A DNA stretch of 64,000 nt from a virus. Taxonomy: Duplodnaviria; Caudoviricetes. The notes under the pieces are model-generated. The model had not been told where the DNA came from. It did no database searches and saw only the letters and a list, made by a program, of their open reading frames with translations. The stretch covers positions 32,001 to 96,000 of the IMG/VR virus record IMGVR_UViG_3300037400_002156, one strand, 5' to 3'. Each line of letters begins with the position of its first letter. Within the stretch, counting starts at the first letter, position 1. The translations under genes and the position numbers were made by a program. Below are positions 53,315-53,862 of this stretch, in pieces.

Positions 53315-53388
53315 GTTAGGCGATAAGATTAGAGTTTACGACTTCAAAAACCATAATCTTATGTTCTACTAACTGAACTACACCTAAC
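53315..53388 (-). pseudogene. Degenerate tRNA-His-like gene (anticodon ATG)
   Basis: 8-bp acceptor GTTAGGTG/CGCCTAAC with G-1:C73, D arm GTTC/GAAC, loop TT-ATG-GT, eroded T loop CTCTAAT. Confidence 0.7.
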
Positions 53389-53394
53389 AAAGAA

Positions 53395-53667
53395 TTATCT
53401 TCATGAGATAACCTTTTAAATCTGATGCCTCACCTTAATTGGCAATCTGGATTATCACCCACTAGTGAATGACCTCTAGAAAGTCTCCTAGCTGCTAAAG
53501 GACTACCTTTTGAGTAGTAGGTGTTCCAAGTGCAGAATTACCTATATCACTATAGGTTACGATAATCCTAAGCGGCCGTGTACTTAAGTCCCATACGGGA
53601 TTATCGACTTCATCGAGTCTTCTGGTTGAGCATTATCTGAGGTACCAAGTAAGAGGCTTGAAGACTA
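53395..53667 (-). ncRNA. Candidate structured RNA 2 (about 270 nt)
   Basis: Stems AGTCTTC/GAAGACT, CGATAATCC/GGATTATCG, ACCTATA-GTGA-TATAGGT (GNRA loop), TCATTCAC/GTGGGTGA with G-U pairs; promoter motif at 53677-53688. Confidence 0.6.
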
Positions 53668-53700
53668 CTATTAATTATTTAGATATAATAAGTTAGTTTA

Positions 53701-53862
53701 TTACATAGGAATCTTTTCTTTCTTAAATCCATGAATTTTATATTCAGAGAACTCATCGTGTACATGATCTTCTTTAATTTGATTTTTTCGACGTTTATAA
53801 TCTTTTGACTTATTACGATTATTGTTCTCAGAAAAATTTTCCTTCCTAAAAGACTTTCCCAT
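53701..53862 (-). CDS. Small basic protein (53 aa)
   Basis: Below the ORF-track cutoff. MGKSFRKENFSENNNRNKSKDYKRRK...KEKIPM; GAGG RBS. Confidence 0.65.
   Translation of the reverse strand: MGKSFRKENFSENNNRNKSKDYKRRKNQIKEDHVHDEFSEYKIHGFKKEKIPM

Follow-up and report, generated by a model that had tools for sequence, protein, structure and literature searches.

Background

AbiF is a HEPN RNase which is blocked by its RNA (PMC13064643, PMC12737573), and a C in the bulge of this RNA is reported to inhibit the RNase (PMC12737573). The RNA has been described as abiF (RF03085), as the AbiFr of the Prevotellaceae AbiF (PDB 8VZ6) and as the RCd22 motifs of C. difficile. RCd22 is active in trans and tolerates compensatory changes in its stem, the structure of the stem being needed rather than its sequence (10.1101/2025.04.15.648962). 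The release of a toxin upon host shut-off is established for ToxIN (PMC13728456). We assume that this would hold for AbiF too. To our knowledge, RNA-based anti-defence is known from few cases.

Genomic setting and make-up of the cassette

We analysed a window of 64,000 nucleotides from the genome record (G000; 204,068 bp, 32% GC, 95% complete) of a rumen-type phage, in which a stretch of 294 nt is real, conserved non-coding RNA with the make-up of a modular cassette. The cassette is located within a 1.5-kb gene-free stretch, 3' of a conserved 53-aa ORF. Its modules (A1 to A3), hairpins (H1 to H3) and surroundings are listed below in window positions:

53701 to 53862, minus strand: basic 53-aa ORF, conserved and without a Pfam family; upstream of the cassette, it serves as the marker of the syntenic site
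53677 to 53687, minus strand: promoter-like motif of the ATATCWA class, putative in function and not conserved before A1 in relatives
about 53672 to 53540, minus strand: A1 (H1, H2 and H3), in which all three hairpins covary
53667 to 53672, minus strand: short 5' leader with an AG end, equivalent of the ACAG/YAG start of bacterial abiF RNAs
53616 to 53666, minus strand: H1, putative abiF-type antitoxin RNA by sequence, fold and covariation
53637 to 53649, minus strand: 13-nt insert by which the apical stem, naturally 2 bp in abiF as judged from bacterial copies, is made longer
53560 to 53606, minus strand: H2, with a 9-bp stem, an internal loop, a 6-bp upper stem and a 9-nt loop
53540 to 53557, minus strand: H3, a 7-bp hairpin with a GNRA loop (GUGA in 12 copies, GUAA in 2)
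53424 to 53529, minus strand: A2, a separate module of ~106 nt, 97% identical in 9 phages
53393 to 53414, minus strand: closing stem only of A3, which is ~90 nt in 10 relatives and has its core deleted here
53315 to 53387, minus strand: degenerate tRNA-like gene (RF00005, 40.7 bits), missed by ARAGORN and directly downstream of the cassette
53011 to 53001, minus strand: second copy of the promoter-like motif, which precedes element B

The related phages come from gut and rumen assemblies, their adjacent 369-aa protein being 53-72% identical, and two runs assembled as contigs contain parts of a close relative; the stretch itself had no match among GenBank phages by blastn, and two other pattern scans gave no matches or chance matches. 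At gathering score Rfam returned tRNAs only (two tRNA-like genes downstream of the cassette), and the one at 53315..53387 has AUG at the anticodon position and a non-canonical T loop. The tRNA/tmRNA cluster of the phage genome is at 133-137 kb, the tmRNA lying elsewhere than the cassette.

An earlier note on this DNA had described a structured minus-strand RNA behind a promoter. A structured ncRNA on this strand, near tRNA-like genes and probably led by a promoter, is backed by covariation and conservation. All seven helices which it listed, and the motif at 53687-53677, are present in the minus-strand sequence. On their own, the 294 nt did not fold better than shuffles (z −1.3 on either strand); the reality of the helices was settled by homologues. 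Covariation among these upheld helices 1-3 and gave no significant support to the four 3' helices, because A2 hardly varies. The note's failure to match the RNA to tmRNA, RNase P, introns or small ribozymes was confirmed, with no Rfam model match to these, or to GOLLD/ROOL, up to E 10. Resemblances to RNase P P4 and group II domain V were rejected for their wrong topology and lack of Rfam support.

Homologue searches recovered 15 A1 copies (5' unit), 9 A2 copies (3' unit) and 10 A3 copies; the A1 copies come from related gut/rumen phages, one being a paralogue in the tRNA cluster of the same genome. A1 and A2 adjoin in six phages and, among the loci compared, A2 was never seen without A1 upstream, which would favour all 270 nt being one folded RNA, as the earlier note had it, and of a new GOLLD/ROOL-like class. 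However, a ~95-aa gene lies between the halves in L022, L042 and L044, A1 is found without A2 in six loci (L003, L012, L025, L036, L038 and L041), L038 retains H1 and H3 with H2 deleted, and there is no conserved long-range pairing. These split, solo and H2-less loci point to a shuffled row of modules rather than one RNA, so that the single-RNA reading is largely refuted and we regard it as very improbable. Elsewhere, L039 has A3 alone, no cassette module was found at the corresponding site in L001, L049 and L050, and in L012 and L045 the tRNA cluster houses the cassette, which is immediately preceded by the 3' half of a 23S GTPase-centre-like RNA.

The A1 paralogue, at G000 135978-135842 (−) (L003:7846-7982), repeats the first 140 nt (E 5e-8) and is flanked by a tRNA-Leu gene on either side. 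It shows compensatory changes relative to the window copy, has AUA in place of CUC in its H1 arm and also differs in its H2 loop. L047 pairs a paralogue-type H1 with the common H2, which shows that modules have recombined. A3 in L042:5996-6091 and L033:3522-3610 has an AAGC...AUGCUC helix of its own, abiF-like and without the loop arm and bulge, and the A3 insert has two sub-types; A3 is possibly a diverged antitoxin-like RNA.

Promoter-like motif and neighbouring elements

The exact 11-mer of the promoter-like motif has only two occurrences in the genome. Its ATATCWA class is strand-biased in non-coding DNA, with 18 minus vs 2 plus occurrences in the virion block and 13 minus vs 1 plus in the replication block, and was found in 10 of 30 regions upstream of virion genes (0.8 expected). 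The motif is real, though not specific to virion genes: what had been called a virion-gene-type promoter is indeed of a class enriched there, but this class also occurs in the replication block and is missing before A1 in 10/10 relatives checked, which have a TGTA(A/T)ATA or TATATA-like motif instead. No sigma-70 site was found at the right distance.

Several other elements were observed nearby. At 53209-53087 (−) of the window there is a unit shaped like a tRNA, with a variable arm in place of an anticodon arm; two hairpins (53131-53087) follow at once and are near-invariant in at least 10 relatives, including relatives without A1-A3. Element B (window 52963-52700 (−), ~250 nt) is structured and conserved, follows the second copy of the promoter-like motif and has a paralogue at G000 145930-146190 (+) and copies in L001 (7945-8174), L038, L039, L049 and L050, with no Rfam match. 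At 52610-52510 (−) a 12-nt unit is repeated eight times in tandem, accompanied by an A/T-only tract, with other tandem units at the same site in L038 and L050; this site is possibly a replication origin. Within the tRNA cluster, two short structured non-tRNA segments (G000 134500-134370 and 135360-135290 (−)) each precede an HNH/zinc-finger-like ORF with a common leader.

Relationship of H1 to the abiF RNA

From its sequence and fold, H1 very probably belongs to the abiF family. The abiF model matched five loci at 25.1-25.9 bits over its full length with a 13-nt insertion, H1 lying below the Rfam gathering cut-off of 37 bits for RF03085; the RNA is thus unrecognised, as the earlier note put it, at gathering score only, and the stem-extended form of abiF escapes Rfam annotation. 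H1 consists of a closing stem, an NGC/GCN helix, a CUC loop arm, an extended apical stem and a 3' bulge CAACCA (53628-53623), the insert sitting in the 3-nt loop of the 2-bp apical stem. With positions 53649-53637 removed, the H1 of the window agrees with the core of the abiF RNA in L084 over 21 identical nt; the L084 core is found 26 nt upstream of a 311-aa Abi_2 ORF. This two-block core matches once in the genome and is expected by chance at 3e-7 per 294-nt strand and 4e-4 per genome, rates to be read in the light of the pattern having been picked after the match had been seen.

Two-sided changes were found in 11/15 pairs of H1, with 97.6% of cells paired (0/500 shuffles, counts which are not probabilities because the copies are related; slid controls were far lower). 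The closing stem and the inner AGC/GCU helix were paired in 98.8% and 100% of cells, with two-sided changes. Within the NGC/GCN helix the G-C and C-G pairs are invariant and the first pair covaries, its swaps being found in phage and bacterial copies alike; the bulge C and A are also invariant (14 copies). Of the phage copies, 9/14 retain the nucleotides which are unpaired in abiF, in the AAGCCUC arm and the GCUCAA bulge. The CUC arm is replaced in three, including the paralogue of this genome, so specificity may differ or be lost in these. It should be noted that H1 covers only a fifth of the 294-nt stretch, that the single-sequence fold of the window H1 (z −0.5) did not give the family fold, that one of its apical pairs is a C-A mismatch and that, unlike bacterial copies, it has no terminator U-tract.

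A pattern scan of bacterial genomes recovered abiF RNAs mostly from Bacteroidales and some from Clostridia; 9 of the 10 tested scored above the Rfam cut-off and 8 of 10 tested downstream ORFs were Abi_2. Among bacterial copies, covariation of the apical pair (UC..GA / UU..AA) was seen in 41/45, and YAG/GAG stands 4-7 nt upstream in 35/45. Longer apical hairpins were found in Bacillota abiF RNAs before Abi_2 genes (L181, L182, L184, L204 and L206), the bulge of L184 being one base apart from that of the window. The C-ended bulge CAAAC, present in most phage copies, occurs in 4/8 clostridial matches and is rare in Bacteroidales, a weak pointer to the host. The host of the phage may lack AbiF, which 25/151 sampled Bacillota genomes carry. 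In one clostridial genome (L173, L184; G003 contig 18) about 5 kb separates an AbiF system from a ToxN-type one.

Among viral contigs the extended-core pattern gave 24 matches, of which five are in this phage family. About eight of the others have the abiF fold, and no Abi_2 was found in the surrounding DNA analysed. Extended orphan copies are present in unrelated phages (L218, L219, L226 and L227). The one at L218:2890-2950 is directly before tRNA-Arg in the tRNA cluster of a 135-kb phage.

Hairpins H2 and H3 and module A2

The loop of H2 is UAAGUACAC in 12/14 copies. H2 and H3 together show two-sided changes in 11/22 pairs, with 92.4% paired (0/500 shuffles, to be read with the same reserve as for H1; slid controls again far lower), in a test of six diverse copies; hand-registered counts refer to 14 copies. 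In A2, the CTAGGA/TTCTAG and TCATTCAC/GTGGGTGA helices have no two-sided change and TGCC/GGCA loses its inner pair in 2/9, while a competing nested fold holds the sole two-sided change, which is not significant (108/500). At 97% identity, A2 is too invariant to choose between the hairpins read earlier and this nested junction; A2 is probably a multi-way junction with a 3' hairpin.

The H2+H3 model (R3) had no match in 151 genomes of G003's class and 151 of G007's phylum, searches which lacked a positive control and in which only 31 candidates were scored per genome. It likewise matched none of 82 loci in the vicinity of Abi_2, ToxN or rRNA genes. The H2 pattern was found in 0/401 genomes and, among viral contigs, only in this phage family. 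AbiV upstream regions gave no match. None of H2, H3 and A2 had a counterpart in Rfam, in the sampled bacterial genomes or beside Abi_2, ToxN or AbiV genes, the bacterial searches being of limited sensitivity for all three and without a structural model for A2.

A probable decoy for host AbiF

No Abi_2 (PF07751) gene was found in the 95%-complete genome, nor in five related, mostly partial records. As this gene is missing both downstream of H1 and genome-wide, H1 is an orphan abiF RNA and not part of a toxin-antitoxin system. A phage copy with neither toxin nor terminator tract makes use as a decoy probable, with pseudo-ToxI against ToxN (PMC3475682) as a precedent, and our favoured reading of the sequence is that H1 holds host AbiF inhibited in trans. 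In a bacterium, AbiF (Abi_2, HEPN RNase) is kept inactive by its own abiF RNA; infection would halt host transcription, deplete this RNA and free the RNase, so that the infection is aborted. The phage would transcribe a cassette of independent small RNA modules, from which H1 would bind AbiF in trans and keep the RNase off to the benefit of the phage. The inhibitory bulge C of PMC12737573 would correspond to the invariant bulge C of H1. We found no paper on phage abiF decoys, although recent Cell work (2025) on AbiFr may cover them. Against a decoy we count the sub-cut-off score of H1, its poor single-sequence fold and C-A mismatch, its small share of the stretch, the CUC arm replaced in three copies, the missing cassette at this site in L001, L049 and L050 and its partial decay here (A3 stump, degenerate tRNA).

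This decay, together with the marginal stability of H1, might suggest a relic with no present function in this phage, but the abiF core has stayed intact and those substitutions in H1-H3 which are the window's own are compensatory, making a relic highly improbable. It is also rather unlikely that H1 is a captured abiF hairpin in a new role (5' stabiliser, processing signal or attenuator) with H2, H3 and A2 doing the work. H1 is always the first module, stands directly behind a promoter-like motif in three phages and has an altered loop arm in three copies, and terminator activity is also known for bacterial abiF (10.1101/2025.04.15.648962); however, the U-tract of bacterial copies is missing, and the unpaired nucleotides kept in most phage copies would be superfluous for a mere stabiliser. 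Less likely still, the cassette might imitate rRNA sites and titrate ribosomal proteins or rRNA-cutting toxins, as 23S GTPase-centre mimics would. The H44-like half of such a mimic is just upstream of A1 in L012 and L045, but was not found in this genome. A2 53463-53432 matches E. coli 23S 973-1004 (H40-H41) at 23/32 ungapped positions (0/40 shuffles), but this was one of about 50 comparisons, the match drops to 20-21/32 or shifts elsewhere in three Bacillota 23S rRNAs, and the partner strand of H41 is missing. H2 resembles 16S h13, with a different covarying register (p about 0.15). Both likenesses were leads which did not hold up, failing across species or in pairing register.

Under the decoy reading of H1, the modules H2, H3 and A2 would probably be further protein-binding modules of the same anti-defence kind, and their neighbours (the abiF copy, the GTPase-centre-like RNA and tRNAs) suggest that they may be further decoys. 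A more tentative proposal, which we consider possible rather than likely, is that the hairpin units act as decoys, each for an RNA-controlled host effector of its own: AbiF for H1, and undescribed RNA-regulated defence systems or rRNA sites for H2, H3, A2 and A3. If true, such systems or rRNA-site targets could be sought with the modules as bait.

Comparison with known systems

H1 shares with the abiF RNA the closing stem, NGC/GCN helix, CUC arm, apical UU/AA pair, 3' CAA bulge and AG leader, and differs from it in 13 additional nt in the apical stem, the absence of a downstream Abi_2 gene and of a U-tract, and the unrelated modules which follow. GOLLD and ROOL are phage ncRNAs beside tRNA genes, as here; however, a single RNA akin to these two, which the earlier note had named for comparison, is not supported, there being no Rfam match, the parts here being short and separable and the first module very probably abiF. 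The pseudo-ToxI of phage TE (PMC3475682), like H1, imitates a type III RNA antitoxin and is encoded by a phage without the toxin, but it is directed at another toxin family (ToxN) and consists of tandem pseudoknot repeats that had to expand, whereas H1 is one copy in a mixed cassette. No internal repeat of the ToxI type (tandem 34-57-nt pseudoknots) was found in the stretch, and Bacillota ToxI arrays have another topology and no match to the H2/H3 model. Cyanophage S-CREM1 (PMC9964418), a large lytic phage, likewise has an annotated abiF sRNA with other ncRNAs close by; this sRNA has the canonical 37-nt form, above the Rfam cut-off and with a putative function, whereas H1 is extended and below the cut-off. 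The cos-site hairpin of sk1 inhibits AbiF (reviewed in PMC13064643), a phage sequence protecting against AbiF as proposed for H1, and is reported to be unlike the abiF RNA, which H1 resembles.

Unrelated phages also carry the putative abiF decoy form. Its position in a shuffled cassette, next to three conserved modules not described before, suggests that large phages may stock RNA decoys as they do tRNAs, the undescribed modules offering bait for RNA-binding host targets. Compared with these systems, the abiF module is a stem-extended variant of a known RNA, and what most deserves to be followed is the mixed cassette with its undescribed modules.
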